A stretch of DNA of 64,000 bases from an uncultured Clostridia bacterium (GCA_964457225.1 CAYWEM010000001.1:317957-381956), one strand, 5' to 3'. Shown: positions 14,639-60,105, counted from the stretch's first letter. The notes: a model not told the origin generated them from the sequence alone. A program made the numbers and translations.

Positions 14639-14644
14639 GCCGGC

Positions 14645-17554: not shown

Positions 17555-17574
17555 ATTGATGATCCCTGTATATA

Positions 17575-18039: not shown

Positions 18040-18062
18040 CTTTTGCCGTTATCCCTATGCCG

Positions 18063-18091
18063 ATGATATGAAAAGACTGTTTCCATGTCAA
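18063..18091 (-). promoter_or_regulatory. sigma70 promoter of the GNAT gene
   Basis: TTGACA-N17-TATCAT on the minus strand. Confidence 0.65.
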
Positions 18092-18139
18092 GGCAGGCGC
18101 AAACACAGCCGATCCTGAACAAACCAGGCAGTAATTCTT

Positions 18140-37900: not shown

Positions 37901-38448
37901 TGGTACGCAAGGCAGTGGCATTCATCGTTGAAGAAACCAACCACCTGCGCCGGGTGGCCCACGGTTTTCTCGACCTGGCCAAAATAGAAACACTCAAGAG
38001 TGAACCATACGACCTGCCCGAGCTCTGCCGGGAAGAAGTGGCCGGCCTGGCTCCGCTTTTCCCCCAGGTTGAATTCAAGCTCAGCACCCCTGAGGAACTG
38101 GTCCTGAAAGGTGACCGGGTCAAGGTCAAGCAGGCCCTGAAAAACCTGCTGGTTAATTCCCTGGAAGCCTTGGGTGACCGCCGGGGTGTGATAGAACTGG
38201 AAGTGCGGGAACAGGGCGAGCAAGTCGGCGTAAAGGTCAGCGACGACGGCCCGGGTTTTTCTTGTCCCGAGGAAGGCGAAGCCGGCGACCTTGATTTCAC
38301 TTCAGCCAAGGAAGGAGGCAGCGGCCTCGGTCTTTTCATCGTCAGGCGAATCTGCGAACTGCACGGCGGCAGGTTGCTGATCGAGGCCGGTCCCGGCCTG
38401 GGATGCAGCATCACCATGATCCTGAACAAAAATGTTACGCAAGCCTGA
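34927..38448 (+). CDS. large multi-pass NtrY-like sensor histidine kinase (HAMP-HisKA-HATPase)
   Basis: H-box VAHEIKNPLTPI, N-box NLLVNS, DDGPG, GSGLGL; many TM segments. Confidence 0.9.
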   Translation: METVPSPRHALLKTTAAALLITALIGFFYQTSLRRLQTQDSLQTIDRQLKRVERKMQFKAEKLRARATRLHEARLKNRLNERLNSREALIVEDYGVIFEYWGEVLLVDFPDLPLNHWSLAKKGQEVFFTLRLEEHLYYSSHFFTLENDALFNDLEKLPATLDWYFSSSPLERTAEPQLETSDNRVIYPHNFAAANHQLALTLAFDPQEFSAFVRFRSASVFAWLLALLAATALVPAARRFLQIPGQATVPAAVLLSIALLFLLQRTEGNLSLPGGLFPLNSTFALLAVLFPLLVVLTRFLRQEKPAKTWISLLSFNFLLIVALFFQQILLNNLLFASSTFTINPDYLSLVLLLLLLYYLPLRLTLPRLKPVKDWKTVIFFFSFQAIGALTCHFLVWGDPVAFMLISLLLLAGFFLKKKLGLILLLLGTLAFLLTWQLHLNAGRDRDSFISENLRRVILSQGHYAKLIAREILYEVNTRQGELHTLFVGDRQHSLTDIWKRSLAGRLGIPSGIFVLNPAGEVLSSFSNRIPYVAFEKRDLLPFWHIEEISADLYGREYTMAAASIDIFHQAVHLGRIMIQVPNSPEVYSGEEREYSIFSANPKAAAARIGYLKMDESGRIRENPFNLTIDSLDMTKLADGQWFRFQHLGSPLRGLFCRGSESILIIFHPLVNPFQLFSTFILLLLFISIPLLLDLGGLPVGVPWRLFYHSFSVKVFLILILISLLTASTFSLFTLNYNRLEQERRNTRISHERGMIARNIAGSIFAGGYEIRPEDLFFLSRILETDVHLYKNGILLFSSNPLTVESGRIPLYLHSDILRKLNRENREMEISTNGASLDLFFAVNGDLIFQLAGISENSERLPRLDLLGDFLISLFFLLGLVGTAAALFFRRKIIAPIDELNKSMLAAEKGVLEPLGHMPREVELQSLYQGFNAMISGIREQKRSTAEISRMKTLINLSSRVAHEIKNPLTPIQLSAEQIEKAVSDAKPGFTEMVRKAVAFIVEETNHLRRVAHGFLDLAKIETLKSEPYDLPELCREEVAGLAPLFPQVEFKLSTPEELVLKGDRVKVKQALKNLLVNSLEALGDRRGVIELEVREQGEQVGVKVSDDGPGFSCPEEGEAGDLDFTSAKEGGSGLGLFIVRRICELHGGRLLIEAGPGLGCSITMILNKNVTQA

Positions 38449-39343
38449 AGCCCTGGTTCCCGGAGACGAGGTGGGCATCTTCGTGCCGGCCTCACCGGTC
38501 AGGGAACCCTTCCGCGCCAACGGTCTGCAGGTTCTGCGCGGACTGGGCTTTGTTCCGCGGGAAGTGCCCGAAATAACTTCCCGACTGGGACTGCGCGCCA
38601 AGCCGCCCGGCCTGATCCTGGCCGACCTGCAGAACCTGTTTGCCGATCCGCTGGTCAAGGCAGTCTGGGCGGCCCGCGGCGGTTACGGCAGCAATGAACT
38701 ATTGCCCCTGCTCAGAAAAAGCAGGCTGCAGGCGGAAAAGGTTTTCGTCGCCTCTTCCGATGCCTGTCACCTGCTCTGGCACCTGATGAGCCGGGAAAAA
38801 ACGGTTGTTTTCTTCGGCCCGATGGCCTACAGCGGCCTGGCCGGGGGTGAATTCGATCGTGACAATCTTCTGCAGGTGCTGGGCGGCGATCACTCGGAAC
38901 TGCTGTACCCGGGCCGGGTCATCAGGCCGGGGAAATTCAGGGGGCCGATCAGCGGAGGTTGTCTTTCGATCATGGTCAGTGTCATCGGCACTCCTTACAG
39001 CCCTTTATTCTCAGGGCAGGCCCTGATCCTTGAAGACCGGAACGAAAAACCACACCGCCTGGCCCGCATGATCTGGCAGCTCTCGGAAGCCGGAATTCTC
39101 GGCAAAGCCGGCGCCTTATTGCTGGGCGAGTTCCCGGGTTGTTTCCGGGAAGCAGCTGAAAAAGAGGATTTTCTGGCCGACCTGCTCGAAAAAACCCGTG
39201 ACAGGTCGATCCCGATCATCTCCGACCTGCCTATTGGTCATGCCCGAAAACCGATGACAGTTCCACTGGGGGTGGAAATCAGCATCGATACTGATTCAGC
39301 CGCCGGTTTCCGGCTGTTGGAAAAAGGAGTTACAAGCAGATGA
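38432..39343 (+). CDS. ldcA: LD-carboxypeptidase (S66)
   Basis: PASP, ARGGYGS, SSDA nucleophile region, GGCLS, LILED, IGH; adjacent to mpl. Confidence 0.88.
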   Translation: MLRKPEALVPGDEVGIFVPASPVREPFRANGLQVLRGLGFVPREVPEITSRLGLRAKPPGLILADLQNLFADPLVKAVWAARGGYGSNELLPLLRKSRLQAEKVFVASSDACHLLWHLMSREKTVVFFGPMAYSGLAGGEFDRDNLLQVLGGDHSELLYPGRVIRPGKFRGPISGGCLSIMVSVIGTPYSPLFSGQALILEDRNEKPHRLARMIWQLSEAGILGKAGALLLGEFPGCFREAAEKEDFLADLLEKTRDRSIPIISDLPIGHARKPMTVPLGVEISIDTDSAAGFRLLEKGVTSR

Positions 39344-40734
39344 ACGTTTACCTGCTGGGCATTGGAGGCACGGGCATGAGCGCCCTGGCCGGTCTGTTCA
39401 GGAGCTGCGGTCACCGGGTCGGCGGTTCGGACAACGCCCTTTATCCCCCGGTTGACCGTCTGCTGGCCGAAATGAACCTCAAGGTCGACCTTGGCTACCG
39501 CAGTGCCGACCTGCCTGAAGACTGTGATCTTTTCGTGGTCGGCAACGTCATATCACGTGGCAATCCCCAACTGGAATTCATACTGGACAATGACCTGGAA
39601 TACACCACCATGGCGGCCGCCCTGGGCCGTCATTTCATCAGCGGCCGTCAGTCAGTGGTAATAGCCGGCACTCACGGTAAAACCACCTGCAGCGCCTTCT
39701 CCGCTCATCTTTTCACATTGGCCGGGCTGAACCCGGGGTTTTTCATCGGCGGTAAGCCCCTGGACCTGGCGGCCAATTTCCAGCCGGCCCGGGGGGAATT
39801 CTTCATCACCGAGGGAGACGAATACGAAACAGCCTTCTGCGACCGTTCGGCCAAATTCCTGAAATACCGGCCGCGCTACCTGCTGATCCCAGCCCTGGAA
39901 TACGATCACGCGGATTTTTACCCCGATGAAAACCTTTATCTTCAAGCCTTCCGCAACCTGGTCAACCTGGTGCCGGCCAACGGGCTGATCGTGGTCAACG
40001 GCGATGACGAAATGGCCGGGGCCGCGGTCAGCGGCGCCCTGGCCCGGGTACAGACCGTGAGCCTGGAAAAAGGCGATTACCTTTTGCAGGATTTGAGAAC
40101 CGATTCCCAGGGGATTTCCTTCGTACTGAACCACCGGGGCTCAAAACAGAAACTCAGCTCCAGCCTGCCCGGCATTTACAATGCCCGCAACCTGGCCACG
40201 GCAGCCGCCCTGGCCGATCACCTGGGCATCGCCCCGCAGACGGTTGCCGAAGCCTGCCGCACTTTCCGGGGGGTGGAACGCCGTTTCCAGCACCTGCGAA
40301 CTATCGGGGCCGTTGAATTTTACGAAGATTTCGCCCATCATCCCACCGCCCTGGCCCTGGCCCTGGAAGCGGCCGGCCAGGCTGCACCTGGCAAAAAACT
40401 GCTGGCGGTATTCGAGCCGGGCAGCGGCAGTCTGAAACGCAACGTCTTTCAGCGAAGACTGGCTCCGGCCCTGGCCCGGGCCGACGGCATAATCATCAAG
40501 CAGCCGGCCGGACTGGATAGAATCCCGATCCATCAACGCCTCGACCTGGAAAAACTGGCCCTGGAACTGCGTGAACTGGGACGTGATATCCTGATCTGCG
40601 CCGGTGACCAGGAGGTCAGGGCGGCCCTGGCCGGGCTGGATTTCAAGCAGCCGACCAGGCTGTTGATTCTTTCCAACGGTTCTTTCGGGGGATTGCCCGA
40701 CTTCGTGCGCCGGGAGCTCAATCCGCCGAACTAG
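39340..40734 (+). CDS. mpl: murein peptide ligase
   Basis: GIGGTGMSALA, GNVISRGNP, AGTHGKTT, EGDEYETAF, EDFAHHPTA. Confidence 0.85.
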   Translation: MNVYLLGIGGTGMSALAGLFRSCGHRVGGSDNALYPPVDRLLAEMNLKVDLGYRSADLPEDCDLFVVGNVISRGNPQLEFILDNDLEYTTMAAALGRHFISGRQSVVIAGTHGKTTCSAFSAHLFTLAGLNPGFFIGGKPLDLAANFQPARGEFFITEGDEYETAFCDRSAKFLKYRPRYLLIPALEYDHADFYPDENLYLQAFRNLVNLVPANGLIVVNGDDEMAGAAVSGALARVQTVSLEKGDYLLQDLRTDSQGISFVLNHRGSKQKLSSSLPGIYNARNLATAAALADHLGIAPQTVAEACRTFRGVERRFQHLRTIGAVEFYEDFAHHPTALALALEAAGQAAPGKKLLAVFEPGSGSLKRNVFQRRLAPALARADGIIIKQPAGLDRIPIHQRLDLEKLALELRELGRDILICAGDQEVRAALAGLDFKQPTRLLILSNGSFGGLPDFVRRELNPPN

Positions 40735-40797
40735 TTTTTCCCGGAACTCCGAAGCAATCTCCGGGGCAGAACCGGGGTTCTTTGCCCAAGAGAAACC

Positions 40798-40826
40798 TTG
40801 ACAATAAAACTCGGTCTTCCTACAAT
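40798..40826 (+). promoter_or_regulatory. near-consensus sigma70 promoter of the kinase-Hsp70 operon
   Basis: TTGACA-N17-TACAAT. Confidence 0.8.
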
Positions 40827-40832
40827 CATTTC

Positions 40833-40970
40833 ATGATCGTCGTTCCTTTAAGCATGCCCGGTTCAGAAACAATTCCCAACATCAGCCCGGCAGCTGATTT
40901 TTACTTCAAGGCGCTTGACCAGCCAGTTATGTCGGCCTTCAGCCAGAAATCCTTCCAGGCCTATCACTGA
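40833..40970 (+). CDS. possible leaderless 45-aa upstream ORF
   Basis: ATG lies 7 nt after the -10 box; its TGA directly abuts the kinase ATG, which has no clear SD. Confidence 0.35.
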   Translation: MIVVPLSMPGSETIPNISPAADFYFKALDQPVMSAFSQKSFQAYH

Positions 40971-42257
40971 ATGACACCGGGAAAAACAGGCGGAACCGAA
41001 AGCTTTGAAATAGTGGAAATGCTCGGAGCCGGGGGCTTCGCCCAGACCTGGCTGGCCCGGGTGCTGGACCGTGACCTGATCAGGGAATGGGGCACCGACC
41101 TGGTGGCCCTTAAAATCCCCCTGGACAAGGAAAAGGCCCGCGTCCTGCAGAAAGAACTGGTCCTGACCGGCAGTCTGCACCTGCAGCTGCGCAAGCTTGA
41201 ATCCAGGCACCTGGTCAGGTATTACGGTTTCGAGGTATTCCAGGGCAAAGCGGTGATGGTCATGGAGTACATCAGCGGCGGCTGCCTGAGAAACCTGCTG
41301 GGGAAAATCGGCCGGCAGAAAGCAATGCGGCCCGAACAGGTGAAACCGATCATCCAGGGGATTGTCTCCGGACTCGAGGCAATCCACAGGAAAAGGATCA
41401 TTCACCGTGACATCAAGCCGGAAAACATACTGATGGACGGCCTGGTGCCGAAAATCACCGATCTTGGGGTCGGCCGGATGCTGCAGCCGGACGAAATGGC
41501 CTTGACCGCGGTGGGCACGCTTTTCTACCTGCCGCCCGAATTGGCCCTGGGCCACCCGGCCACCTACAACGTCGATTTCTGGCCCCTGGGCGTGATGCTG
41601 TTCGAAATGCTCTTCGGCTGTTTTCCCTTCGGAATAAGTCCCGAAATGCCGCCGGGCCGCATGCTGAGCATCATAGTCGATGAAAAAATCAATCTGGTCC
41701 TGCCGCCCCTGGAAGGCCTGCCCGATTGTTTCCGCACCCTTTTACCACGCCTGCTGGAAAGGAATCCCCAGAAAAGAATCAAGCGGGCCGGGGAAATCCT
41801 GGATTTACTGGACGACAAGGCTGGATCAGTTTCAGCCCCGGCAGATCGGCATGTTGACGTGGAAAACGAAATCGAGGAACTGACCAGGCTGATGAAGAAC
41901 CAGGCTGATCCCGAGAGCGTAAAAAAAAGACTGGCCGACCTGATCGAAAGTCACCCGGATCAGGCCCGGATTTTTTTACTGGCCGGGCAGTTCTTTACCA
42001 GGATCAACCACCCGGAAAGGGCCCTGGAGTTGTTTGCCCGGGCGGCCGAGTTATCGCCCGGTTCAGCACTGCCTTTATGGGAATGCGCCGTGGCTTACGA
42101 CCAACTTGGGAAACCGGCCCAGGGCCTGGACTGCCTGAACAAAGCACTGGCCATCGGACTCGATCCGGGCCGGGAAAAAGTCGCCCGCTCCCTGCAAAAA
42201 AAGCTCCAGGCAAAAGTAAAGAATAAACCCGAAACTGAACCGGCACAAGGAGGATGA
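40971..42257 (+). CDS. Hanks-type Ser/Thr kinase with C-terminal TPRs, no TM segment
   Basis: LGAGGFA, VALK, HRDIKPEN, DLG, GTLFYLPPE, DFWPLG; TPR-like C-terminus. Confidence 0.93.
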   Translation: MTPGKTGGTESFEIVEMLGAGGFAQTWLARVLDRDLIREWGTDLVALKIPLDKEKARVLQKELVLTGSLHLQLRKLESRHLVRYYGFEVFQGKAVMVMEYISGGCLRNLLGKIGRQKAMRPEQVKPIIQGIVSGLEAIHRKRIIHRDIKPENILMDGLVPKITDLGVGRMLQPDEMALTAVGTLFYLPPELALGHPATYNVDFWPLGVMLFEMLFGCFPFGISPEMPPGRMLSIIVDEKINLVLPPLEGLPDCFRTLLPRLLERNPQKRIKRAGEILDLLDDKAGSVSAPADRHVDVENEIEELTRLMKNQADPESVKKRLADLIESHPDQARIFLLAGQFFTRINHPERALELFARAAELSPGSALPLWECAVAYDQLGKPAQGLDCLNKALAIGLDPGREKVARSLQKKLQAKVKNKPETEPAQGG

Positions 42258-42259
42258 AA

Positions 42260-44677
42260 ATGGGACGAATTATCGGTATCGACCTGGGAACGACCAACTC
42301 CGTGATGGCCACCGTCGGCGAAGGCGGTCCCAGAATCATTCAGAACCGGGAAAACGAGGACAAGACTCTCTCGATCGTTTCTTTTCACAAGGGTGAACTG
42401 CTGGTGGGCACGCCGGCCTTCCAGCGCTGGCTTATCAACCCCAGGGAAACGGTCGTTTCCATAAAACGCCTGATCGGACGGGGATTCAACGACCCTGAAG
42501 TACAGCGTTTCAAGGCCGGGGACAAGGGTAAGGAATGGATCAAGTATGAAATCGTTCAGCCTCCGGACGGTACCGCGGACAGCCTGCGGGTCGTACTGGG
42601 CGGCAATCACTATTCCCCGGTTGAAATTTCGGCCCGGATCCTGGAAAAAATGAAAAAAGACGCCGAATACGTGCTGGGTGAAGAAGTCAGTCACGCGGTT
42701 ATAACCGTCCCCGCCTATTTCAGTGACAAACAGCGCAACGCCACCCGTGAAGCCGGATTGAAAGCCGGTCTCAAGGTCATGAAGATTCTCGATGAACCGA
42801 CCGCGGCCGCGGTGGCCTACGGGATAGAAGATCATCAGGGTGAACCGAAAACCATCCTGGTCTTTGATCTCGGGGGCGGCACCCTGGATATTTCCGTGTT
42901 GATGATGGCTTCCGGAGCCTTTTCCCCGCTGAACCTGGAAGGCGACATGTGGCTGGGCGGGGATGATTTCGATGAAATCATCGTCAGCCATGTTCTGGCC
43001 GAGATAAAAAGTAAGTACGGACTTGAACCCAGGTCGGACACCCGCTTCATGGCCGCCTTGAAAAAAGAAGCACAGCGGGCCAAGGAAACTCTCAGCTCGG
43101 CGGCCGCGACTGACGTCATTCTGGCCGGCCAGCTCCGGGATGATTCCGGAGAACCGCTGGACATCGAGGTGGAAATCACCCGTACCCGTTTCGATGAAAT
43201 GATCCGCCCCCTTATCGACAAGATGCGCAAAATGATTGAAAAAGCCGTCATCAATGCCAATTTTGAATTCAACGACATCGACCACGTGCTGATGGCCGGC
43301 AATTCCACCGCGGTACCGGCCATTCAGGTCCTGATGGAACAGTTGTTCGGCAAGGAAAAAATCCTGCGCGCCGTCCACCCCAAGCACAGTGTGGCTATCG
43401 GGGCGGCCGTCACCGCGGCCCTGTTGCAGGCGGTCAACTGTCCGACCTGCGGTCACAACAACCCTCTCGATGCGGGCAACTGCGAAAAATGCGCCACCGA
43501 GCTGGTAATAAACCGCTCCAGGAAATGCCCGGCCTGCGGCCGTGAAAACCCTGAATCAGCCGAGAAATGCCGCGACTGCAACACTCCTTTTTTTGAACTC
43601 GAGGGACTCAAGGGCGGAATCGCGCCCTTTCACTACGGAGTGGCCACCGCTGACGACAAGTTCCACATCTTCATCAGCAAGGGCGATCCTTTCGAAACCC
43701 CGGAAGAAAAAAGAATCGTTCAGACTTTTTACACTCATTATCCCAACCAGAGAGTCATCTGCGTTCCGGTTTACGGGGGTGATCACCTGGAAAAGGCCAG
43801 TTTGAACGTCAAGCAGGGCGAGGTTTTTTCAGTACTGCCCCGGGGTTTCCCGGAAAAAACCCCGGTCAAGGTCAAGCTCTGGCTGGATCATGACGGTTCC
43901 TTCGTGGTCGACAACTTCCTGGACGAGGCTCATGACCTGGAAGACCTGATGCTGAGAGGCGAAGAAGATCAGAAAGTAGTCGAATTGCTGACCGCGGCCG
44001 AAGAGAAGTTCCATGCCAGGAAGGATCAACTGGCCCCGAACGTGCTGGCCGAGCTGGAAAGCAAGCGCGACCAGGTCCTGGACAAACTGGATCGCAAGGA
44101 ATTCAGCGCGGCCGGCGCGGCGGCGGCCCAATTACTGCAGGCTGTAGAAAACGCCGGAGCTCCGGACCTGATGAAGAAAGCTGAAAACATTATCTCAAAC
44201 ATAAACTATTACGTTCAGCGTTATTCCTGGTTAATGCAGGCCGATGGCCTGTCCTTGTCCTCCAAGGTTGAGGAACTGAAATCAGCAGTTTCTGGCGGAA
44301 ACCGGCAATTAATTGAAAACAAAATCAACGAGCTTGATACCGCCTTTAATTTGTGCCAGGAAAAAAACCAGCTTCTAAAAGTCCTGGTCAGCATTAACCA
44401 GGCGATTGTAAGCATCGTCCACCCGGTCGACGCCCTGCAGGCCGGAGAATTACTGCGTGAATTCGAACAGATCGAAGCCGGCCTTAAAAACAACGACCTT
44501 TCAGCCCAGTCCCGTTTCGCCGCCTTTATGTTAAAACTGAATGCCGCCCTGCAATCCTGCCTGCAAAAAGGCGGCGGAAAAACCAGCCCCTGCCGATCCT
44601 GCGGCCAGGCCAACCCGATCGGCGCCCGGAACTGCAAAGCCTGCGGTGCGGATCTCTGGGGACTGGTCAGCCTGTAA
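42260..44677 (+). CDS. non-canonical Hsp70-family protein with three zinc ribbons
   Basis: GIDLGTTNS, SIKRLIGR, TVPAYF, DEPTAAA, DLGGGTLD, LGGDDFD; six CxxC motifs. ATG 42260 is 6 nt after AAGGAGG (alternative 42254). Confidence 0.93.
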   Translation: MGRIIGIDLGTTNSVMATVGEGGPRIIQNRENEDKTLSIVSFHKGELLVGTPAFQRWLINPRETVVSIKRLIGRGFNDPEVQRFKAGDKGKEWIKYEIVQPPDGTADSLRVVLGGNHYSPVEISARILEKMKKDAEYVLGEEVSHAVITVPAYFSDKQRNATREAGLKAGLKVMKILDEPTAAAVAYGIEDHQGEPKTILVFDLGGGTLDISVLMMASGAFSPLNLEGDMWLGGDDFDEIIVSHVLAEIKSKYGLEPRSDTRFMAALKKEAQRAKETLSSAAATDVILAGQLRDDSGEPLDIEVEITRTRFDEMIRPLIDKMRKMIEKAVINANFEFNDIDHVLMAGNSTAVPAIQVLMEQLFGKEKILRAVHPKHSVAIGAAVTAALLQAVNCPTCGHNNPLDAGNCEKCATELVINRSRKCPACGRENPESAEKCRDCNTPFFELEGLKGGIAPFHYGVATADDKFHIFISKGDPFETPEEKRIVQTFYTHYPNQRVICVPVYGGDHLEKASLNVKQGEVFSVLPRGFPEKTPVKVKLWLDHDGSFVVDNFLDEAHDLEDLMLRGEEDQKVVELLTAAEEKFHARKDQLAPNVLAELESKRDQVLDKLDRKEFSAAGAAAAQLLQAVENAGAPDLMKKAENIISNINYYVQRYSWLMQADGLSLSSKVEELKSAVSGGNRQLIENKINELDTAFNLCQEKNQLLKVLVSINQAIVSIVHPVDALQAGELLREFEQIEAGLKNNDLSAQSRFAAFMLKLNAALQSCLQKGGGKTSPCRSCGQANPIGARNCKACGADLWGLVSL

Positions 44678-44689
44678 GGTTTCCCGAGC

Positions 44690-47017
44690 ATGAAAGATCC
44701 GCTGCAGCTCTCTGAAAACGCTTACGAGGTACTGCTGATCGATCCGGACGGATTGGTTGACAACCAGCTGGTGGCCCGGCAGTTCAAACTGAAAGAGGTT
44801 TTCACCAGGAAAAACGCCCGGGAAGCCCGGAATACCCTGGTCAATCCTTTGAGCCGGGCCCTGGTCGACGTTTTCATTTTCGAAAACCGTTTCCTGGCTA
44901 AGCTTTCAGAAAAAATCTGCCGGGAGCCACAACTGCTGGTCAGCCGGCGCGGAGATATCCGCCGGGGCCTGGAAAACAAGCTGACCGAGATGTTTCCCTA
45001 TTATCCCTGTATCTACACCCTGGCGGTCCTCAGTTACTGGGAGGCGGTTTATCTCGAAGAAAAACGCTGGGCCGGGCTGGAACAAGCGGATTTCCCCCAA
45101 CCAGCCGGCCTGGGACAATTAATTGAACTTGAAAAAGCCTGGACGGACACCGTTCTTTACTGGGCCGCCCTGATCAACAGCAAAGATTTCTGGCTGGAAT
45201 GGCTGGAACTGAAAAAGGAAAACGGACTGCTGCTGGATCAAGGACATGACATTCCCAAGCTGCAGCAAGCGATCAGTGATCACCTGGGCAAACAGATAAA
45301 CAGCTACTCGGAAAGATACCGATTGGCCGGCAGGCAGGCGGAAGCACTTTTTTTCAGCGATTCCTCTGCAAAGCTGAGTAATGAAATCCGCAGCGGCTCT
45401 GTCCTGGCCGCCCTTGAGATCAGGGAGAGCTTCGGTTCCCGCTCCTACCTTTTTGCCTGCGGCCCCGGACTGCTGCAGAAATACAGTCAAATCGAGAAGG
45501 TAAAAAACGCTATCCGGGCGGCCAGGCTAAAGCAACCGCAAAACCAGGATCTGCAGGAGCTGGAAAAAGCACTTTCCCCCCTGGCCGGGATTTACGACCT
45601 GCTGAAAGAGGGCAAGCTGGACCGGGCCAAAGAGGAATTGAACAAAATAGATCCGGCCGCGGTCGATGATTCCGAATTGAATTCATGCCGGATGAACCTG
45701 GCTTTTAAACAGGGCAGCCAGGCTTTCAGCGTGGGCCGGGAGGAAGATGGTTTTCAATTCTGGAAAGAATGCTTATATCACGGTCAGCTCAATGACGAGC
45801 AAAAGGCCGGGATTTCCAGGCTGGTCCTGGAAAAGGTAAAGTCTCTCCAGCTGCATGAACCGCAAAAAGCGATAAGCATGCTGGAAAGAGTCCTGAACAT
45901 CTTCCCGGACCGGGAAATGTCCGGCAACCTTTCCCTGTTACTGATGCAACGCGGCATCGGGGCTTATAACAATGGTATCCAGGAAATAGACGGACTTTTT
46001 CAGCATATTCATCAATCAGGTTCTCTCAGCTGGCCTGATGACGGTCCATTCAAGGCGAGTAACTTCCTGCAGGCCTCGGAAAACTCCATCAACGATCTGA
46101 CAAAAGCGCTTTCCCTGGACCCCGGCAACCAGAAAATAATGCAGGAACTCCATAGCATAAAATCCGGCTTGCAGAACATCGGCAAAACCCTGATAAAACT
46201 ATCCATACAAAACCAGGATTATCAGATTGCCGACAACACTGTCATGGTTATAATCCGCCAGGGACTTAGTGACCCGGAATTTGAACAACTATGCCATGAA
46301 GTCGAATACAACCGCAAGTTTATGCCCTGGATGCCCAAACCTTTCAGCCCGGGAGCACCAGTCAAGCAGGTAAAACAAAAAAAAATCTCTTCGGAAAAGC
46401 TGCCCGACCTGATCGACCGGGAAAAGTGCTTTTTCTGCCTGGGAGAAAAGAACGACGGCCGGGAAAACGCAAGGCTGGAACTGGATTTTCATAAAACCAT
46501 CAGTAATGATGAAAACCTGCTGCATTGGCAGTCCCAAAAACTGTTCGTTTCCCGCTGCCCGAAATGCGCCGAAGTACACCAGGCCAAGAAAGAGAAAAAA
46601 GATCCTTTGGCCGAGGCCAAGGGCGAAGCCGCCGGCTGCGGCTGCCTGGCCTTCATCTTCAACGGCATCATCCTTTACTTCCTGGTTTACCTGTTCGTTG
46701 ACTTTCACAGGCTCTTCGGCATGCATCCGGCTTTTATCGGAGTCACCGGCTTGATCTCTCTCCTGACCGCCATGGGTATAATTTTCATCGTGAAAAGAAT
46801 ACCGCGGAACGGCGACCCGGCCCGGAAAAAAGCCATGGCCGACTTCATGAAACTCGGAAATCACCGGATGCTGAGCTTTGCCGAAGTGACCCGCCGTTAC
46901 GAATGGTACCTGAACACCACCGCGGATGAACAATCCTGGAAAAAACACGCCCTGGCAGCTGATATCGTCAGAAAAGGTTTTTCTACCGGTCTCAGGCCGC
47001 CCGAGGCGGGATTGTAA
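44690..47017 (+). CDS. membrane-anchored protein: J-like N-terminus without HPD, helical/TPR-like repeats, CxxC-CxxC finger, two TM helices
   Basis: NAYEVLLI...AREARNTLVNPLSRALVD; CFFC...CPKC; two hydrophobic segments at about 46640-46795. Confidence 0.75.
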   Translation: MKDPLQLSENAYEVLLIDPDGLVDNQLVARQFKLKEVFTRKNAREARNTLVNPLSRALVDVFIFENRFLAKLSEKICREPQLLVSRRGDIRRGLENKLTEMFPYYPCIYTLAVLSYWEAVYLEEKRWAGLEQADFPQPAGLGQLIELEKAWTDTVLYWAALINSKDFWLEWLELKKENGLLLDQGHDIPKLQQAISDHLGKQINSYSERYRLAGRQAEALFFSDSSAKLSNEIRSGSVLAALEIRESFGSRSYLFACGPGLLQKYSQIEKVKNAIRAARLKQPQNQDLQELEKALSPLAGIYDLLKEGKLDRAKEELNKIDPAAVDDSELNSCRMNLAFKQGSQAFSVGREEDGFQFWKECLYHGQLNDEQKAGISRLVLEKVKSLQLHEPQKAISMLERVLNIFPDREMSGNLSLLLMQRGIGAYNNGIQEIDGLFQHIHQSGSLSWPDDGPFKASNFLQASENSINDLTKALSLDPGNQKIMQELHSIKSGLQNIGKTLIKLSIQNQDYQIADNTVMVIIRQGLSDPEFEQLCHEVEYNRKFMPWMPKPFSPGAPVKQVKQKKISSEKLPDLIDREKCFFCLGEKNDGRENARLELDFHKTISNDENLLHWQSQKLFVSRCPKCAEVHQAKKEKKDPLAEAKGEAAGCGCLAFIFNGIILYFLVYLFVDFHRLFGMHPAFIGVTGLISLLTAMGIIFIVKRIPRNGDPARKKAMADFMKLGNHRMLSFAEVTRRYEWYLNTTADEQSWKKHALAADIVRKGFSTGLRPPEAGL

Positions 47018-47050
47018 CGTGAAAGCCGCAAAACCAAGCGGGGGAATCAC

Positions 47051-48028
47051 ATGAACAAGGCTGCGCAAACAATGGTTTTCTTTTTCATCATGGCTCTGCT
47101 GCAAGTCGGCAACCTGGTTTATTTCGCCGAAAGGGAACAGGCTGAAAAAGCTGTTGAATACCGGGAACTGGCCCGGGAATCACTGGATTTGCTCAGCAAG
47201 AAAGGAGTTGCTGCGGAATTGATCGTGGAAAGAATTAAGACCCTGGCTGCTGAAGCAGGCAGGATCGAAAACTCTTTTTTCATAAAAACACTGCACCCGA
47301 CTTACAAAGACACGATATTTCAGAGCCTGCGTCATCTTTACATCGATTTCTTTACGTATTACGGGGAGGAAGCCTGGCAGCAGATCAGGTTCATCAACAT
47401 GATCCTGGAAAGTGAAATCAAAGTCGATTACCTGCTGAAACCTCCGGATCTCAGCCGCGAACCTGTAAGAAAACCGGCCGGAAAGACCGGGGAAAAACCC
47501 GCGGAACCTGATCCGGCACTTGACTCTCGCCTGAAGAGCAGTGTTGAGAGAATTAATGAAATCAACTCGATTCTGGCGGGAATGAAGGGGGAACTCAGTA
47601 TTGAAGAAATCCCGATAACCAGGCAATTGCTCGATGAAAAGGCTCAACACGAGAGGTTTGTCAGGAATGAAATAATGCGCATGCAGACGGAAGATTTAGA
47701 ACTGCCGGGGTTTCTCCAGGATTTCAGCGAAAACAAAACGGAACAGCCAAAAGTCCCGGCCCGGCCCCTGCCCGATGCCCCGGTACAGGATTCGGAAGAA
47801 CCGGCCCGGAACCGGGAAATCAAGCGCGGAGAGCTGGGTTCATACATCGGCAAAACCATCCTGCTGACCCTGACCAACGGACGTAACATGAAGGTGGTTC
47901 TGCAGGATGTTAACCCGGGATCAATCAAGGTGGCCGAGATGAGGCCCGAAGGGGAAATGAATTACACGATCCCCCATGCCAGGATCAGGCTGATCGAACG
48001 GGAGCAGAACTATTTCATCAAAGAATAA
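47051..48028 (+). CDS. exported or membrane-anchored hypothetical protein, C-terminal Sm/SH3-like beta domain
   Basis: Hydrophobic N-terminus, helical middle with Pro-rich linkers, C-terminus YIGKTILLTLTNGRNMKVVL...IPHARIRLIE. Confidence 0.65.
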   Translation: MNKAAQTMVFFFIMALLQVGNLVYFAEREQAEKAVEYRELARESLDLLSKKGVAAELIVERIKTLAAEAGRIENSFFIKTLHPTYKDTIFQSLRHLYIDFFTYYGEEAWQQIRFINMILESEIKVDYLLKPPDLSREPVRKPAGKTGEKPAEPDPALDSRLKSSVERINEINSILAGMKGELSIEEIPITRQLLDEKAQHERFVRNEIMRMQTEDLELPGFLQDFSENKTEQPKVPARPLPDAPVQDSEEPARNREIKRGELGSYIGKTILLTLTNGRNMKVVLQDVNPGSIKVAEMRPEGEMNYTIPHARIRLIEREQNYFIKE

Positions 48029-48503
48029 CGAACTCCCCGAAAAACTTCATAAGGCTTACGCCAGGGCGGCAGCCCTGTGCGCGGCCAGGGAATACTGCGC
48101 TTTTGACCTGGCCCGCAAATTGAAATCCTGGGGGCTGTCTGAAGAGGAATCTGCACAGGCACTCTCCCGGTTGGAAACCGAGGGTTTCCTGGACGAGGAG
48201 CGTTATGCCCGGGCTTTCGTCCAGGACAAAACCCGCTTCAACGGCTGGGGACGGCGCAAGATAGACTCCATGCTGGCCGCCAGGCAAATCAGCCCGCAGG
48301 CCCGCGAAGCGGCCTTTGCCGGTCTGCCGGAGGATTCCTTTCAAACCCGGCTGTTCAAACTGCTTCAGGACAAGGCAAACCGTTTGGCAAAACTGGAACC
48401 CGGCCTGCGCCGCCGGCGCCTGATCGCCTTCGGCCTGGGCCGGGGCTATTCCCTGAACGAAATCGAGAACGTGCTGGACGAACTGGCCATTCCGGAAGAA
48501 TGA
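48012..48503 (+). CDS. recX: RecX regulatory protein; probable non-canonical start (ATT 48012)
   Basis: FLDEERYARAFVQDK..FNGWGRRKI and FGLGRGYS. The frame is open upstream of the track start (TTG 48120) and encodes the RecX helix ARAAALCAAREYC. Confidence 0.85.
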   Translation: MSSKNNELPEKLHKAYARAAALCAAREYCAFDLARKLKSWGLSEEESAQALSRLETEGFLDEERYARAFVQDKTRFNGWGRRKIDSMLAARQISPQAREAAFAGLPEDSFQTRLFKLLQDKANRLAKLEPGLRRRRLIAFGLGRGYSLNEIENVLDELAIPEE

Positions 48504-48647
48504 ACGATGTTGAGCATTCAGCGGATATACCGATCCGCCCCGCTAGTAATCAAGAATTAATATGTCCACTTTCGGCGGCTTGCTTTTTTTTTACTTAAAC
48601 TGTAAATACCAAGGGTACGCTGGTTGGTTTTCGGTCAGGAGGCCGGC

Positions 48648-51600
48648 ATGATTAAAAAGAACAGGCCAGGAGGGGAAATAATCAAGCCGGGCCGGGCCGG
48701 GAACAGGCGTTTGAAAGAAAAATCAGCCGATTTCCATGAAACCAAAGAGAAACTCCAGGCCAGCGAAGAGCGAATTCGTTCCATATTGCAGATAATTCCG
48801 GACATCATAATCGAGCTGAATGCCGAGGGTGAATACCTGGCCGTGCATACCGCCGCTGACGAGCTTCTGATCAAGTCCAGGCAAGAGATGATCGGCAATA
48901 AAATCAGCGACATCATGCCGTCGGAATCCGCCGAAGTGTTTTTACAGGGACTCCGGCGGGCCATCCGTACCGGGAATTTACAATCAGTTGAATACGAACT
49001 GCAGGTCCAGGCGGGTAAAAGGTATTTCGAAGCGCGCCTGGTGGCCCAGGGCCGGGAAAGGGCCCTGGCTTTCATCCGGGATATCAGCGAACGAAAACTG
49101 GCTGAAGAAAGCTTGCGCGAAAGTGAAGAAAAACATCGCCTGCTTTTTGAAACCATGTCTCCCGGGGTCATATACCAGGAAGCCGATGGCCGGATAACTT
49201 CAGCAAATCCCTCGGCTGAAAGAATACTTGGCCTGTCACTGTCTCAGATGCAGGGCAAGACTTCCATGGATCCGCGCTGGAAGATGATCGATGAAAACGG
49301 CGTTCCGGTGCCAGGTTCCGAGCATCCGGCCATGATAGCGCTGAAAACGGGCCGCAAGACGGGCCCATTGACCAGGGCGGTTTACATTCCCGAAAAAGAC
49401 GATTACGTCTGGCTTTCGATCACCGCCATCCCCCTGTTCCGGCCCGGGGCCGCCAAACCACATCAGGTTTATGCGACTTTCGATGACATCAGCGAGCGCC
49501 GGCGGGCCGAGGCTGAACTGCTGGAAAGCAACCGACGGCTTGAATCATTCCTGGAAATCAGCCGGAGAATAACTTCGTCCACGGAACAATCTGAGATCAT
49601 GCAGTTGATAGTCGACCATGCCACCAGGGTCATGAACATCGACAGCGGCGCGGTTTACCTGCTGAACGATCAGGGGATGCTTCATCTGGAGGCCACGACT
49701 CCGGCTCTTCCGGAGAACTTTCCGGAGGAAATGCGTGCAGCTGTTTTAGACGACCATCCGCATATAAAAAAAGCCGCCAGTACAGGCCTGCACGTCGTCA
49801 TGCCCGATATCCGGACCGCTGATTTATCTCCGGCCGAAAAAAGCGTAGTCAATTTAAGAAACCTGCGTTCAAACCTATATCTGCCCATTCGTCTCAGGGG
49901 TTTATCAATCGGGGTTTTGATACTGTCATCAATAGAAAACAAATACGATTTCTCAGAGGAAGCCATAATACTGCTCCGGGGCTTTGCCGACCAGGCCGCC
50001 CAGATAATCGACAACCTGCGCAATTACCAGCAGATCAGGGAACAAACCCGGGTCCTGGAACAGGAAATCATTGATCGGGAACAGGCCGAGGCAGCCCTGC
50101 GCGAGAGCGAGAATCGTATCAAGAGTATTTTCCGGACTGCGCCCATCGGGATCGGCATGGTTTCCAACCGCATCCTGAAAGAGGCCAATCCCCGGCTTTG
50201 CCAGATCTCCGGCTATTCTCAAGCTGAGCTGATCGACCGTTCGGCCAGAATGCTCTACCCTGATGATGAGGAATTCGAATACGTGGGGCGTGAAAAATAC
50301 CGGCAAATCAGCGAACAGGGCACTGGAACAGTCGAGACGAAATGGAAGCGCAAAGACGGCGTCTTGATAAACGTATTGCTCAGCTCGACCCCCATTGACC
50401 TGAACGACCTGTCCAGGGGGGTCACTTTCACCGCCCTGGACATAACCGCCAGCAAGCAGGCCGAAGAGGAACGTGAGAAACTCCAGTCTCAACTGACCCA
50501 GGCCCAGAAAATGGAATCAGTGGGCCGACTGGCCGGGGGCATTGCCCATGACTTCAACAACATGCTTTCCGTAATCCTGGGCCGGGCCGAGCTGGCCCTG
50601 GATTTAGTCCGGGAAAATGAGCCGCTTCACGCCGGCCTGAAAGAAATCCAGAAAGCGGCCCGGCACTCGGCTGACCTGACCCGCCAGTTGCTGGCCTTCG
50701 CCCGCAGGCAGACCATAACCCCCAGAGTGCTTGACCTCAATTCAAATCTGGCCGAAATGCTCAGCATGCTCAAGCGGCTGGTCGGAGAAAACATCGCCAT
50801 CGAATGGAAACCCGGCCGTGATATCTGGCCGGTCAAGATGGACCCGGCCCAGCTGAACCAGATAATAGCCAATCTCTGTGTCAATTCCAGGGATGCCATC
50901 GACGATACAGGCAGAATATCGATCGAAACAAGCAACTGCACCTTTGACCGGGAATACTGCAGCCGAAATCCGGACTTTCTTTCCGGAGATTTCGTCCGCC
51001 TGACGGTCGGAGATAACGGCTGCGGCATGGATGAACAGACCCTCAGCCATCTTTTCGAACCGTTTTTCACCACCAAGGAAGTCGGGCAGGGCACCGGCCT
51101 GGGCCTGGCCACCATTTACGGCGCAGTCAGGCAGAACCAGGGTTTCATCATAGTAAACAGTGAGCCGGGCCGGGGCACGAGCTTCAGCATTTACCTGCCT
51201 CGGCACCAGCTTGAATCAGTTGCTCCGCAAAGGACGGAAACAAGTAGAATGGAGCTCAACGGCAGCGGAACAATTCTTCTGGTGGAAGACGAACCGGCCA
51301 TCCTCAGCATGACCAAAATGATGCTGGAGCAGCTTGGGTACTCCGTGCTGGCCGCCCACACGCCGGTTGAGGCCATGCGCCTGGCTGAAAAATTCCCGGG
51401 GTCAATCGATCTGCTGATGACCGACGTGATCATGCCGGAAATGAACGGCCGCAAACTGGCCGCCAACCTGCAGGCCGTTTACCCGGACCTGGCCTGCCTG
51501 TTCATGTCGGGCTACACCGCCGATGTTATAGCCGATCACGGCGTACTCGCCGCGGGCGTGCATTTTATCCAAAAACCGTTTTCCATAAAGGATCTTGGAC

Positions 51601-55473: not shown

Positions 55474-56028
55474 CTATGTAGAGGCATCCTCGGCTTTGGC
55501 CTGCTTGAGATAGCGCTCCAGGATCAGGGGCACCTGGTCGGAGGTAACGTCGCCGTGGACCTCCTCCCCCACCATGACCACAGGCGCCAGGCCGCAGGTT
55601 CCGACGCAGCGGGAAGCCTCAAGAGTAAAGAGACCGTCCTTGCTGGTTTCTCCGAACCCGATTCCTAACTCCTCCTCGAAACGGGTGACCACCCCCTCGG
55701 CCCCCTTGACGTAGCAGGCGGTTCCAATGCAGACCGAGATGCGAAAACGCCCCACCGGCTGCAAGCGGAAATAGTGGTAGAAGGACGCAACCCCAGAGAC
55801 CTTGGCGGCGGGTACCTGGAGAAGCTGCGCCACGGCATCGAGCTGGGGAACTCCCAGGTACCCGAAGTGGCCCTGCACCCGGTGGAGCACCTCAATGAGG
55901 TTGCTCTCGGAGCGGGGTCGGGTGCGGCAATCCTCGATGAAGGCGACGATATCCGGGGTGAGGACCGCAGCGGCCGCGGCGCTCACGGCCGGCCAGTTAT
56001 CATTGTTTCTGCAGGAGTGATGGCTCAT
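55474..56028 (-). CDS. hydC: [FeFe]-hydrogenase NuoE-like 2Fe-2S subunit (HydC/HndA)
   Basis: VCIGTACYVKGA and CVGTCGLAPVV; last gene of the hyd operon. Confidence 0.88.
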   Translation of the reverse strand: MSHHSCRNNDNWPAVSAAAAAVLTPDIVAFIEDCRTRPRSESNLIEVLHRVQGHFGYLGVPQLDAVAQLLQVPAAKVSGVASFYHYFRLQPVGRFRISVCIGTACYVKGAEGVVTRFEEELGIGFGETSKDGLFTLEASRCVGTCGLAPVVMVGEEVHGDVTSDQVPLILERYLKQAKAEDAST

Positions 56029-57785
56029 CGGACACCTCGCGGCAATTTGGGAGTGTAGCTTGTATGCAGCAGGTCATGGGCCTTGTCGCCGCCAGGTTCA
56101 CCCAGAAAACGCTGGAACAGCTCCTTTACGGCGGGGTTTTCGTGGGAGCGGCGCAGTTTCTTGGTAGCGTCGATCTGGTAGAGGGCCTGGGCGCGCTGGC
56201 GCAGCACCTGATGATCCAGAGCGTGTTCCACCCCGGGTGGATAGGGCTGGCCGCCGCCGCCGATGCAGCCGCCGGGACAGGCCATGACCTCTATGACGTG
56301 GAACTCCTCCTCGCCCCGGGAGACCTTGTCCAGCAGCTTGCGGGCGTGCCGCAAACTATTGGCCACCCCGACCCGCAGCAGGCGGCCTGCCAGGGCCACA
56401 TCCACGGTCTTGATCCCACCCACGGCGCGAACCTCCGGGAACTCGAGCCGTTCGGGCTCCTTGCCCGTGAGCAGGGCGGCCGCTGTGCGCAGGGTGGCCT
56501 CCATGACACCGCCGGTAGTGCCGAAGATGTCTCCGGCGCCGCTGGCCAGGCCCAGGGGTGCGTCGTACTCGCCGTCCGGGAGGGAGACCAGGTCTATGCC
56601 CCAGCACTTGATCATCCAGGCCAGTTCACGGGTGGTGAGCACAGCGTCGGTGGTGGGGGTGCCGTCCGGCAACCGGTGCTCGGGCCGGGCGGCCTCGAAT
56701 TTCTTGGCGGTGCAGGGCATGACGGCAACCACGAATATCTTCTCCACCGGCACTTTGACCTGCTGCGCCCAGTAGGTCTTGATCAGGGTGGACATCATGC
56801 TCATGGGAGACTTGCAGGTGGAGGCATTGGGGATCAGCTCGGGGTAGAACTTCTCCAGAAAGGATATCCAACCGGGCGAGCAGGAGGTGATGATGGGCAG
56901 CGGACCGCCCTCCTCCAGCCGCCTGATGAGTTCATGGGCCTCCTCGACAATGGTCAGGTCGGCGCCCAGGTCAGTATCAAAGACCTGGTCGAACCCCAGA
57001 CGCCTCAGAGCAGTGATCATGCGGCCGGTGACCGGGGTACCCGGCGGCAAGCCGAAGGCCTCGCCCAACGTCGCCCGGATGGCTGGCGCCGTCTGCACCA
57101 ACACCACCTTGTCAGGGTCGGCCAGGGCGGCCCAGACCGGCTCGGTGGCGGGTTTCTCCAGAAAGGCAGCAGTGGGGCAGACGTTGACGCACTGCCCGCA
57201 CTGGATGCAGACCGAATCGTCCATTTTGGCGCCGTGGGCCGGCGTGACAACAGTTGTGAAACCCCTCCGGTGCTGGGAAAGATTATAGACACCCTGGACC
57301 TCGTCGCAAACCCGGACGCAGCGCCCGCAAAGAATGCACTTGTCCGGCTCACGCAGCACCGCCACCGACGAGTCGTCGATGGGAAAGTGCTTGCGTTTGC
57401 CTTCAAAGAGTCGTTCCCGCACGCCGTGGCGCCAGGCCACCTTCTGCAGTTCGCAGTTGCCGTCGCGTTCACAGGTCTGGCAGTCCATGGGGTGGTTGTC
57501 CAGGATCAGCTCAATGATATCACGCCTTGCCTGGCGTATGACCGGTGAGTTGGTGTTCACCCTCATCCCGTCCCATACCTTCTGCGAACAGGCCGCCATG
57601 TAATAATCCATGCCCTCCACTTCCACGATGCACACCCGGCAGGCACCGGCGATGGAGAGGTCGGGGTGGTAACACAACCGCGGAATGTTGATATTGAGTT
57701 CCTCGGCAGCAGCCATGATGGTGGTGCCGGCCGGCACCTCCAGTGGTGTGTCGTCGATCCAGATTGATACTTTCTTCTCGCTCAT
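56025..57785 (-). CDS. hydA: [FeFe]-hydrogenase catalytic subunit, group A
   Basis: H-cluster motifs TSCSPGW, MPCTAKKFE, EVMACPGGCIGGGGQP; accessory 2Fe-2S, His-ligated and 2x[4Fe-4S] sites. Confidence 0.95.
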   Translation of the reverse strand: MSEKKVSIWIDDTPLEVPAGTTIMAAAEELNINIPRLCYHPDLSIAGACRVCIVEVEGMDYYMAACSQKVWDGMRVNTNSPVIRQARRDIIELILDNHPMDCQTCERDGNCELQKVAWRHGVRERLFEGKRKHFPIDDSSVAVLREPDKCILCGRCVRVCDEVQGVYNLSQHRRGFTTVVTPAHGAKMDDSVCIQCGQCVNVCPTAAFLEKPATEPVWAALADPDKVVLVQTAPAIRATLGEAFGLPPGTPVTGRMITALRRLGFDQVFDTDLGADLTIVEEAHELIRRLEEGGPLPIITSCSPGWISFLEKFYPELIPNASTCKSPMSMMSTLIKTYWAQQVKVPVEKIFVVAVMPCTAKKFEAARPEHRLPDGTPTTDAVLTTRELAWMIKCWGIDLVSLPDGEYDAPLGLASGAGDIFGTTGGVMEATLRTAAALLTGKEPERLEFPEVRAVGGIKTVDVALAGRLLRVGVANSLRHARKLLDKVSRGEEEFHVIEVMACPGGCIGGGGQPYPPGVEHALDHQVLRQRAQALYQIDATKKLRRSHENPAVKELFQRFLGEPGGDKAHDLLHTSYTPKLPRGVR

Positions 57786-57795
57786 GGCCGCCCCC

Positions 57796-59964: not shown

Positions 59965-60105
59965 CAGGTTTATCTCCTCGCCATCATTGTCATCAATCGA
60001 GCAACGCAGGTGTTTGGTGTGCAAGAAACATTAAAGACGTCAGGGTTAAAGGCAATTGAAGGTATCTGCTTTTCTGACAGGAAATTCAATATCAGCCATT
60101 TTATG

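Follow-up and report, generated by a model that had tools for sequence, protein, structure and literature searches.

A zinc-ribbon Hsp70, a membrane-anchored J-like protein and a Ser/Thr kinase: a probable reduced member of an undescribed Hsp70 system in an uncultured Clostridia bacterium

What kind of Hsp70 is encoded directly between a Ser/Thr kinase and a membrane protein, and what might the three do together? The question is raised by a 64-kb stretch of DNA from an uncultured Clostridia bacterium (GCA_964457225.1, CAYWEM010000001.1:317957-381956), which in its full length is referred to as the window and in which features are numbered from the first letter. On its + strand, as are all genes of the operon, lie genes for a soluble Hanks-type Ser/Thr kinase of 428 aa (40971..42257), an Hsp70 paralogue of 805 aa with inserted zinc ribbons (42260..44677) and a membrane-anchored, co-chaperone-like partner of 775 aa, here called PAR (44690..47017). 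A preliminary description, made from the sequence alone, saw in these genes a self-contained and phosphorylation-gated chaperone switch at the membrane that might act in stress sensing or in biological conflict such as anti-phage defence. The answer that emerges here is in part a different one, with the locus being probably (a probability of roughly 55%) a reduced form, with three or four genes, of a rare and conserved but undescribed Hsp70 system that would be responsible for the phosphorylation-controlled, membrane-tethered remodelling, extraction or turnover of envelope proteins.

The existence of such a system is apparent from the relatives of the locus. These were retrieved with an alignment of the Hsp70 from aa 215 to its end, and their neighbourhoods come from exact-protein look-ups and from scans of metagenomes and of 185,579 species genomes, with the genes labelled by hidden Markov models (HMMs) built here. 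Collapsing at >95% identity left 47 non-redundant loci, and the denominators given are the loci with enough flanking DNA to be evaluated. A kinase with tetratricopeptide repeats (TPRs) lies beside the Hsp70 in 30/35 and PAR does so in 36/42, a dedicated GrpE is found in 40/46, and in 18/38 a Pfam-confirmed PP2C phosphatase sits between kinase and GrpE. A zinc-ribbon-TPR protein with one transmembrane (TM) segment and then LysM or OmpA is encoded in 21/32 loci, a Clp-like AAA+ protein in 22/26 and ClpP in 4/22, giving a consensus order of KIN-(PP2C)-GrpE-Hsp70-PAR-(TPR/LysM)-AAA+-(protease), where KIN is the kinase. The identities between full-length orthologues (BLAST) are 45-49% for the kinase, 49-66% for the Hsp70 and 23-45% for PAR, and the hosts belong to at least 12 phyla, amongst them Clostridia, Aminicenantes, Verrucomicrobiota, Planctomycetota, Chloroflexota, Acidobacteriota, Gemmatimonadota, Actinomycetota, Bacteroidales, Riflebacteria, Delta- and Gammaproteobacteria and one 'archaeon' bin. 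As synteny is conserved across the loci the linkage of the genes is not chance, and the suggestion of a dedicated, non-housekeeping Hsp70 module is upheld by this recurrent synteny together with a patchy spread over the phyla.

The window locus shares with this family its Hsp70 motifs, an upstream TPR-kinase and an adjacent PAR that begins MKDPLQ, and is set apart from it by GrpE and AAA+. The GrpE HMM built here gave no match in the 64 kb and no Clp/Hsp100 is found among the large open reading frames (ORFs) of the window, making this copy one of the 6/46 loci that are GrpE-less and the 4/26 that are AAA+-less; with GrpE and the downstream Clp-like AAA+ both absent, the locus is a reduced variant. 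That the trio is self-contained is not supported, given that most relatives add GrpE, a peptidoglycan-binding TPR membrane protein and a ClpA- or FtsH-like AAA+ protein, with or without a protease.

That the Hsp70 departs from the canonical form was noted at the outset and is borne out by Pfam and by an AlphaFold2 (AF2) model, which find a nucleotide-binding domain (NBD), a double zinc ribbon and a further zinc ribbon at the C-terminus. Pfam matches HSP70 (5e-120, NBD only) and DZR. The NBD occupies aa 1-390 (42260-43429; Pfam and AF2) and is followed by the double zinc ribbon, which stands in place of the VLLLD linker (aa 391-445, 43430-43594; Pfam DZR and AF2), by the beta part of the substrate-binding domain (SBD-beta; aa 455-565, 43622-43954) and a nine-helix lid (aa 569-771, 43964-44572), both taken from the AF2 model, and by the C-terminal zinc ribbon and then DLW (aa 775-800, 44582-44659; Pfam and AF2). 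The start is taken as the ATG at 42260, not that at 42254, with AAGGAGG lying 6 nt upstream, members of the family starting MG..GIDLGTTN and the database gene call also being 805 aa long.

Only the NBD part of the chaperone fold (aa 1-393), and then the zinc ribbons, are recognised by Pfam and NCBIfam, and the scores of the Hsp70 against the DnaK equivalogs NF001413/TIGR02350 stay far below the cutoffs (388 bits vs 648 and 375 vs 822), with the match confined to model positions 1-375. A sequence search of the PDB likewise returned NBD matches only, at 41% identity to Thermus thermophilus DnaK, and the substrate-binding domain was recovered by structure alone. In the AF2 model (pLDDT 85.7, pTM 0.74) the NBD and beta-sandwich fit domain-docked DnaK and BiP by Foldseek, with a TMt of 0.85-0.86 and an rmsd of 4.2-4.4 A over ~575 columns, and by this superposition the Hsp70 is complete, with NBD, SBD-beta and lid. 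The ATPase motifs DLGTTNS, IKR, DEPTAAA and DLGGGT are intact when aligned to DnaK, so that the modelled protein has what defines a chaperone of the superfamily, namely an NBD with catalytic motifs, an SBD-beta and a helical lid. It also carries the motifs of its own family (GDMWLGGD, MAGNST, HPK, the linker zinc ribbon and a C-terminal CxxC..CxxC-D-x-W), which numbers >120 full-length homologues of ~800 aa. To the 119 other members listed the window protein is 37-58% identical, over at least 75% (mostly 99%) of its own length. One further change concerns the J-domain interface. DnaK R167 and N170 (KRIINEPT), which we take from the established genetics and structure of DnaK-DnaJ to be the contacts for the HPD of a J domain, are K and D in the window Hsp70 (MKILDEPT) and in the family consensus.

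PAR has a J-like domain with no HPD. Profiles of 138 PAR N-termini and of J domains were aligned with hhalign (a caveat being that the J-domain reference sequences were entered by hand), giving a probability of 97.8% and an E value of 7e-13 with the YHPDK loop falling in a gap, and HPD was found in the J-like region of 0/151 family members inspected. With HPD absent and the loop aligned to a gap, PAR is J-like and not a true J-domain protein. The J-like domain is placed at aa 1-65 (44690-44884; hhalign), where AF2 predicts short helices at aa 11-61 with pLDDT >90, and the N-terminus MKDPLQxxxTPYE(I/V)LG is conserved in nearly all of the 151 members. A TPR-like alpha-solenoid follows to aa ~545 (to 46324; AF2), then a CxxC...CxxC zinc finger (C580xxC...C623xxC; aa 580-626, 46427-46567) that forms a beta-hairpin in the model, a hairpin of two TM helices (aa 639-703, 46604-46798; AF2 and Kyte-Doolittle) and a C-terminal tail of ~70 aa (AF2). 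The model as a whole (pLDDT 84.6) consists of an all-helical solenoid, a disordered linker, the zinc finger, two long hydrophobic helices at 639-676 and 680-703, within which Kyte-Doolittle places TM segments at 652-670 and 683-701, and the short tail. Foldseek returned only generic TPR solenoids for PAR, with a TM-score <0.2 and with P58IPK and Tom70 among the weak matches.

PAR is not an isolated protein. A word-indexed search gave 2 homologues and with it the impression of an orphan, an idea that was dropped when an exhaustive profile search gave 528 clusters (50% identity), of which 197 have E <1e-30; the PAR HMM scores 547 bits on the window protein. C-terminal TM segments are predicted in 113/150 representatives, often after 2xCxxC, with most having 1-3 TM segments and ~6/150 having at least 6. 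Membrane tethering of PAR is thus supported by the predictions, and the membrane partner with an HPD-less J-like domain, TPRs, zinc finger and two TM segments that had been proposed is recovered by hhalign, AF2 and the TM and CxxC predictions. Zinc ribbons are common to the Hsp70, PAR and the relatives' small TPR protein, which suggests a shared role in interaction or in contact with the membrane.

The third component, the kinase, has a catalytic domain at aa 13-271 and TPRs at aa ~305-400 of its C-terminal part, matches Pfam Pkinase (1.3e-41) and TPR, and has no predicted TM segment. Its motifs GAGGFA, VALK, HRDIKPEN and DLG are all intact, along its full length it shares 45-46% identity with the kinases of relatives L001 and L008, and it scores 744 bits with the kinase HMM. 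Across the family, 20/22 kinases have HRDIKPEN and D[LF]G intact. A phosphorylation switch acting on the chaperone is plausible from this conservation and from the in-operon PP2C in about half of the loci; of the gating that the preliminary description assumed it is this plausibility that stands.

How such a system might work can be sketched. PAR would sit in the cytoplasmic membrane by its C-terminal TM hairpin, exposing a large cytoplasmic solenoid capped by the J-like domain, an anatomy taken from the model and TM predictions, and may dock its cognate Hsp70 there through a co-evolved, non-canonical interface. The Hsp70, apparently competent as an ATPase, could then bind a membrane- or envelope-associated polypeptide as its client, with the soluble TPR-kinase possibly phosphorylating a component or the client as an on/off switch that PP2C would reverse in the relatives. 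In full systems GrpE would reset the Hsp70 and the AAA+ protein or protease would unfold or degrade the client. The window copy would either borrow the housekeeping GrpE and Clp/FtsH of its host or be confined to the role of a regulated holdase or remodeller. What underlies this reading can be found in the sequences and predicted models, with the operonic linkage, intact ATPase and kinase motifs, complete Hsp70 fold, HPD-less J fold, PAR anchoring and peptidoglycan-binding partner all in evidence, and with a Clp/FtsH-type output and PP2C encoded in the relatives.

A number of points count against this interpretation. In a J domain that has lost its HPD, the binding or activation of Hsp70 cannot be assumed. 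The window copy is without GrpE, PP2C, the peptidoglycan-binding TPR protein and AAA+, thus the logic of the full system may not carry over to it. Every full-length match of the genome scan is to a metagenome-assembled genome (MAG), and the loci overall are almost all from MAGs or metagenome contigs.

It may be asked how far the idea of a distinct system can be taken. Reviews list three types of prokaryotic Hsp70, DnaK, HscA and HscC, with other DnaK derivatives being an unexplored 'dark matter' (PMC8215388, PMC13580251). A bolder proposal, offered tentatively and with the balance of probability against it, is that the present family forms a fourth major class, a membrane-tethered motor that is docked by an HPD-less J-like receptor, has a GrpE of its own, is turned on and off by kinase and PP2C and includes a TPR subunit anchored to peptidoglycan as well as an AAA+ protease, and which would extract and destroy envelope proteins or, in forms of PAR fused to YidC, insert them. 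If true, bacteria would have in it a functional counterpart of the Hsp70 import motors of eukaryotic organelles, or of dislocation of the type seen in endoplasmic-reticulum-associated degradation, in which the J interface works without HPD. Apart from this proposal, the system, with its 4-8 genes and its spread over at least 12 phyla, departs from two textbook rules for Hsp70, the HPD of the partner being missing and the hydrophobic linker replaced, and it links the chaperone with Ser/Thr phosphorylation, with membrane and peptidoglycan and with AAA+ proteolysis. Should the main interpretation hold, it would offer a tractable bacterial case for HPD-free Hsp70 recruitment, for a phosphorylation-gated chaperone and for post-translational extraction or insertion of envelope proteins. 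Annotation rules also follow for the ~500 protein clusters now labelled 'hypothetical' or 'DnaK'.

The relatives differ considerably in what they carry around the conserved core. Their AAA+ proteins are ClpA-like, with two rings and no ClpB M-domain, and score below all equivalog cutoffs, and a genuine ClpP is found with a score of 338 bits (vs a cutoff of 308.6). In several loci the AAA+ is replaced by an unusual ~1150-aa fusion of AAA_2 (Clp-D2-type), FtsH-AAA and Peptidase_M41, which recurs beside the operon in MAGs of Deltaproteobacteria, Planctomycetota and Competibacteraceae (L016 17728-21192, L025 15800-19318, and L027 18425-21823 on the - strand). The small TPR partner is bitopic, its LysM or OmpA following one TM segment as an extracytoplasmic peptidoglycan-binding domain. 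A second Hsp70-like protein is encoded within the operon of L015 (11595-13592) and has a partial NBD, TPRs and a C-terminal SecA-type SEC-C zinc motif. Loci of the Clostridia type have three conserved genes after the Clp-like AAA+ (~310, ~325 and ~460 aa, no Pfam match; L007 8108-11187, L008 15162-18421, L010 16496-19825), the first with an N-terminal TM segment. A sigma-54 activator adjoining the operon was found by pattern search in one locus only. The full KIN-GrpE-Hsp70-sTPR arrangement is also present in L021, a MAG labelled 'archaeon' (JAJRXH010000556.1), by either horizontal gene transfer (HGT) into an archaeon or a binning error.

More distant are the actinomycete loci L034-L045 and L056, from the cultured hosts Streptomyces, Saccharopolyspora, Glycomyces, Amycolatopsis and Actinophytocola, which encode a giant PAR-like protein of 1700-2300 aa, GrpE, an Hsp70 of ~700 aa and an NBD-only Hsp70. 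They are probably instances of the theme of Hsp70 and GrpE described by Kaur et al. 2020 (PMC7159879), and as cultured organisms with distant versions of the system they would be experimentally tractable hosts.

There are other ways in which the locus can be read, and of these a role in biological conflict is the one that survives best, although it is unlikely. The Hsp70 and PAR would sense a foreign protein, for instance an assembling phage structure, and release kinase-gated membrane damage or runaway proteolysis, leading to abortive infection. A patchy, HGT-like distribution over the phyla would fit with this, as would the fast evolution of PAR relative to the Hsp70 (23-45% vs 49-66% identity) and its variable C-terminal modules, and the theme resembles the Hsp70, GrpE and J/TPR and the kinase and PP2C modules of the GAP1-N2 GTPase systems (PMC7159879). 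One locus, L009, is flanked at 14137-18433 by AbiEii, an MmeI/Eco57I-type restriction-modification gene and STAND-like ATPases including an AAA_16 ATPase, the sole defence-island-like context seen. The kinase does match the MAD6 and PD-T4-6 kinase models (mad6, PD-T4-6) of PADLOC-DB v2, although these are generic matches to the kinase domain. The same database gave 0 matches for the Hsp70 and for the 325-aa protein downstream of the operon, here called W325, and for PAR one weak, off-target match to Csx1/Csm6 (1e-4); the trio thus matches no defence system of this database.

The surroundings of the genes argue in the same direction. Amongst 80 ORFs flanking 24 loci PADLOC found three sigma-54-type AAA, two radical SAM, one kinase and one IetA-like AAA, all of them generic, and by Pfam these ORFs are mostly metabolic, housekeeping or regulatory genes, a few for FHA, PP2C and sigma-54 activators occurring among them. 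The flanks of the window copy are ldcA, mpl, recX and sensor kinases, a scan of viral contigs found no copy of the Hsp70, and no toxic effector domain (nuclease, TIR or pore-former) can be recognised. Nor is a GTPase or GAP1 among the Pfam families listed, for which no dedicated search was made. The anti-phage role that had been suggested finds no positive support, with flanks that are generic or housekeeping and no viral contig carrying the system.

Slightly less probable again, and also unlikely, is that the system assists in the biogenesis of membrane proteins, PAR being a receptor in the manner of Tom70, Sec72 or Sec63 that passes clients held by Hsp70 to an insertase whilst the AAA+ protein or protease clears the failures. 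It is the long PAR homologues, which end in YidC/Oxa1 (60KD_IMP) or in LysM, that give rise to this idea. YidC is found in 4/8 of those scanned (P0134, P0135, P0152 and P0159), which are 1147-1386 aa long and join a cytoplasmic J-like/TPR part to a C-terminal 60KD_IMP; such a fusion would be an insertase with a built-in Hsp70-docking module. The PARs with at least 6 TM segments, the SEC-C of the second Hsp70-like protein in L015 and the appearance of P58IPK and Tom70 among the Foldseek matches are all in keeping with it. However, YidC fusions are a small minority, with most PARs, that of the window included, having few TM segments, and the structural similarity is to generic TPRs. The near-universal AAA+ and recurrent proteases point to unfolding or degradation instead, and no insertase gene is found in the window locus.

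It is highly improbable that the Hsp70 is an ordinary stress DnaK paralogue with functionally unrelated neighbours in a fortuitous or merely inherited order, for whilst its NBD finds its best matches in DnaK models and many bacteria have several DnaK paralogues (PMC11019930, PMC13580251), it matches the DnaK equivalog by the NBD only and at a score far short of the cutoff, the genes are 2-12 nt apart or overlapping, and the idea is effectively refuted by a synteny in which the same order recurs in Clostridia, Planctomycetota, Verrucomicrobiota, Acidobacteriota, Chloroflexota, Gamma- and Deltaproteobacteria, Actinomycetota, Bacteroidales and others at 23-66% identity. The locus does not have the features of the housekeeping dnaK operon (hrcA-grpE-dnaK-dnaJ) either, there being no GrpE and 0 matches to CIRCE in the 64 kb even at up to 3 mismatches, and with mpl on one side and W325 and recX on the other. 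The preliminary description had come to the same view from the absence of grpE, dnaJ, hrcA and CIRCE nearby, and it holds as far as GrpE and CIRCE are concerned, dnaJ and hrcA not having been directly searched for.

The layout of the locus is that of an operon. The spacing is 2 nt from the kinase stop to the Hsp70 ATG, a gap which follows from the choice of the ATG at 42260, and 12 nt from Hsp70 to PAR. A sigma-70-type promoter, TTGACA-N17-TACAAT (40798..40826, +; read directly, 11/12 match), is the best-scoring site within the 8.2 kb of 40500-48700 and comes directly after a terminator-like hairpin (40759-40777) 3' of mpl. The three co-oriented, closely spaced genes with a promoter of their own, from which the earlier interest in the locus arose, are thus confirmed both as ORFs and in their promoter site. 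Between promoter and kinase there is an uncertain and speculative upstream ORF of 45 codons (40834..40970, +; read directly). With an ATG 7 nt past the -10 hexamer it may be leaderless, and its stop codon, TGA, directly adjoins the start codon of the kinase (TGAATG). A hairpin and T-run lie inside it at 40881-40898, and a leader peptide coupled to the operon by translation is one possible function, an attenuator another; no Rfam family was matched in the 5' leader.

Downstream of PAR, W325 (47051..48028, +) is a lineage-specific protein of 325 aa with an N-terminal TM anchor (aa 5-23), a middle part resembling a coiled coil and a C-terminus that is small and beta-rich, and has no match in Pfam, NCBIfam or PADLOC. 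With a gap of 33 nt, a Shine-Dalgarno-like GGGGG and no terminator on the + strand after PAR, it is probably co-transcribed with the operon and may be part of the system. The sole homologue found is 90% identical and has the same PAR-W325-recX order (L076 1272-2249), and none occurs in any other locus mapped. W325 sits where the TPR-TM-LysM protein stands in other loci, and it was considered as the counterpart of that subunit; this lacks support, the two being dissimilar in sequence and the one homologue of W325 coming from a near-identical relative.

The genes that flank the operon are of a housekeeping or regulatory kind, with a sensor kinase, an LD-carboxypeptidase (ldcA) and Mpl upstream and, after W325, RecX and a hybrid histidine kinase downstream. 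Directly upstream (38432-40734, +) the Peptidase_S66 LD-carboxypeptidase and the mpl-like gene of the Mur ligase family are both involved in peptidoglycan recycling, which may be set beside the LysM and OmpA subunits of the relatives but may be coincidence. Elsewhere in the window there is a cobalamin riboswitch (Rfam RF00174, 95.9 bits; 14482-14648, -) upstream of a gene for a TonB-dependent receptor (12567-14429, -). At 56025-60024 (-) the large subunit of an [FeFe]-hydrogenase adjoins a NuoF-like flavoprotein in what looks like an electron-bifurcating hydrogenase module, suggesting that the source organism is an anaerobe.

As had been supposed, the combination of genes does not correspond to a characterised system. 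PADLOC has no matching system, NCBIfam has no equivalog for the trio, and full-text searches of the literature found no description of an operon of kinase, Hsp70(DZR) and PAR. Parts of it can be found in known systems. In Escherichia coli the yegD-yegI-pphC genes place an Hsp70-superfamily ATPase beside a Hanks-type kinase and a PP2C phosphatase. YegD, which is described in PMC13580251, is however NBD-only, and PAR, GrpE, zinc ribbon and AAA+ are not known from its neighbourhood. Hsp70, GrpE and a two-ring Hsp100 are shared with the bichaperone of DnaK-DnaJ-GrpE and the ClpB disaggregase, yet in the present system there is no J-protein with HPD, the Hsp100 is ClpA-like without the M-domain and sometimes comes with ClpP or as a fusion to an FtsH protease. 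The present system is also membrane-anchored and kinase-linked, without CIRCE in the window, hrcA again not having been searched for directly.

The motor of the mitochondrial presequence translocase consists of mtHsp70, Tim44, Pam18 and Pam16, of which Pam16 is J-like and HPD-less, with the GrpE-type Mge1 and the zinc-ribbon protein Hep1/Zim17. It would resemble the present system in having a membrane-tethered Hsp70, an HPD-less J-like protein, an exchange factor of the GrpE type and an element with a zinc ribbon. Beyond the J fold, however, PAR shows no homology to Tim44 or Pam16, and the zinc ribbons are here fused into the Hsp70 itself. The operon also has no J partner that bears an HPD, and it is the present family that has a kinase, phosphatase and AAA+ protease. 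The motor may be seen as the closest functional analogy, and as an analogy only.

The closest relative to have been described by comparative genomics is the Hsp70/GrpE theme of the GAP1-N2 GTPase systems (Kaur, Burroughs, Iyer and Aravind 2020, PMC7159879). These too combine an Hsp70 with GrpE and with a partner fused to DnaJ or TPRs, an NBD-only Hsp70 being added in some cases. They are membrane-proximal with cell-wall-binding domains, and themes of kinase and PP2C are known from the superfamily to which they belong. The order kinase-GrpE-Hsp70(DZR)-PAR-TPR/LysM-Clp is not in that paper. GTPase, GAP1, FN3 (FNIII) and tubulin were absent from the Pfam families of the genes called in L001-L009 and from the 25 top families of the 80 flanking ORFs, a dedicated search not having been made.

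Of the systems that have been characterised the closest analogue is HscC of E. coli with DjlB/DjlC (YbeS/YbeV), where, as here, a dedicated Hsp70 paralogue is encoded beside a membrane-anchored J-type co-chaperone (PMC8215388). The two are nevertheless distinct, for HscC is ~556 aa long, without zinc ribbons and independent of GrpE, whereas the present family has ~800 aa (805 aa in the window), three zinc ribbons inserted into it and usually its own GrpE. DjlB and DjlC carry a tail anchor and have a canonical HPD, in contrast to PAR in which the HPD loop is deleted, and only the present family is linked to kinase, PP2C and AAA+ or protease. The HscC-DjlB/DjlC module is thought to act on membrane proteins (PMC8215388).

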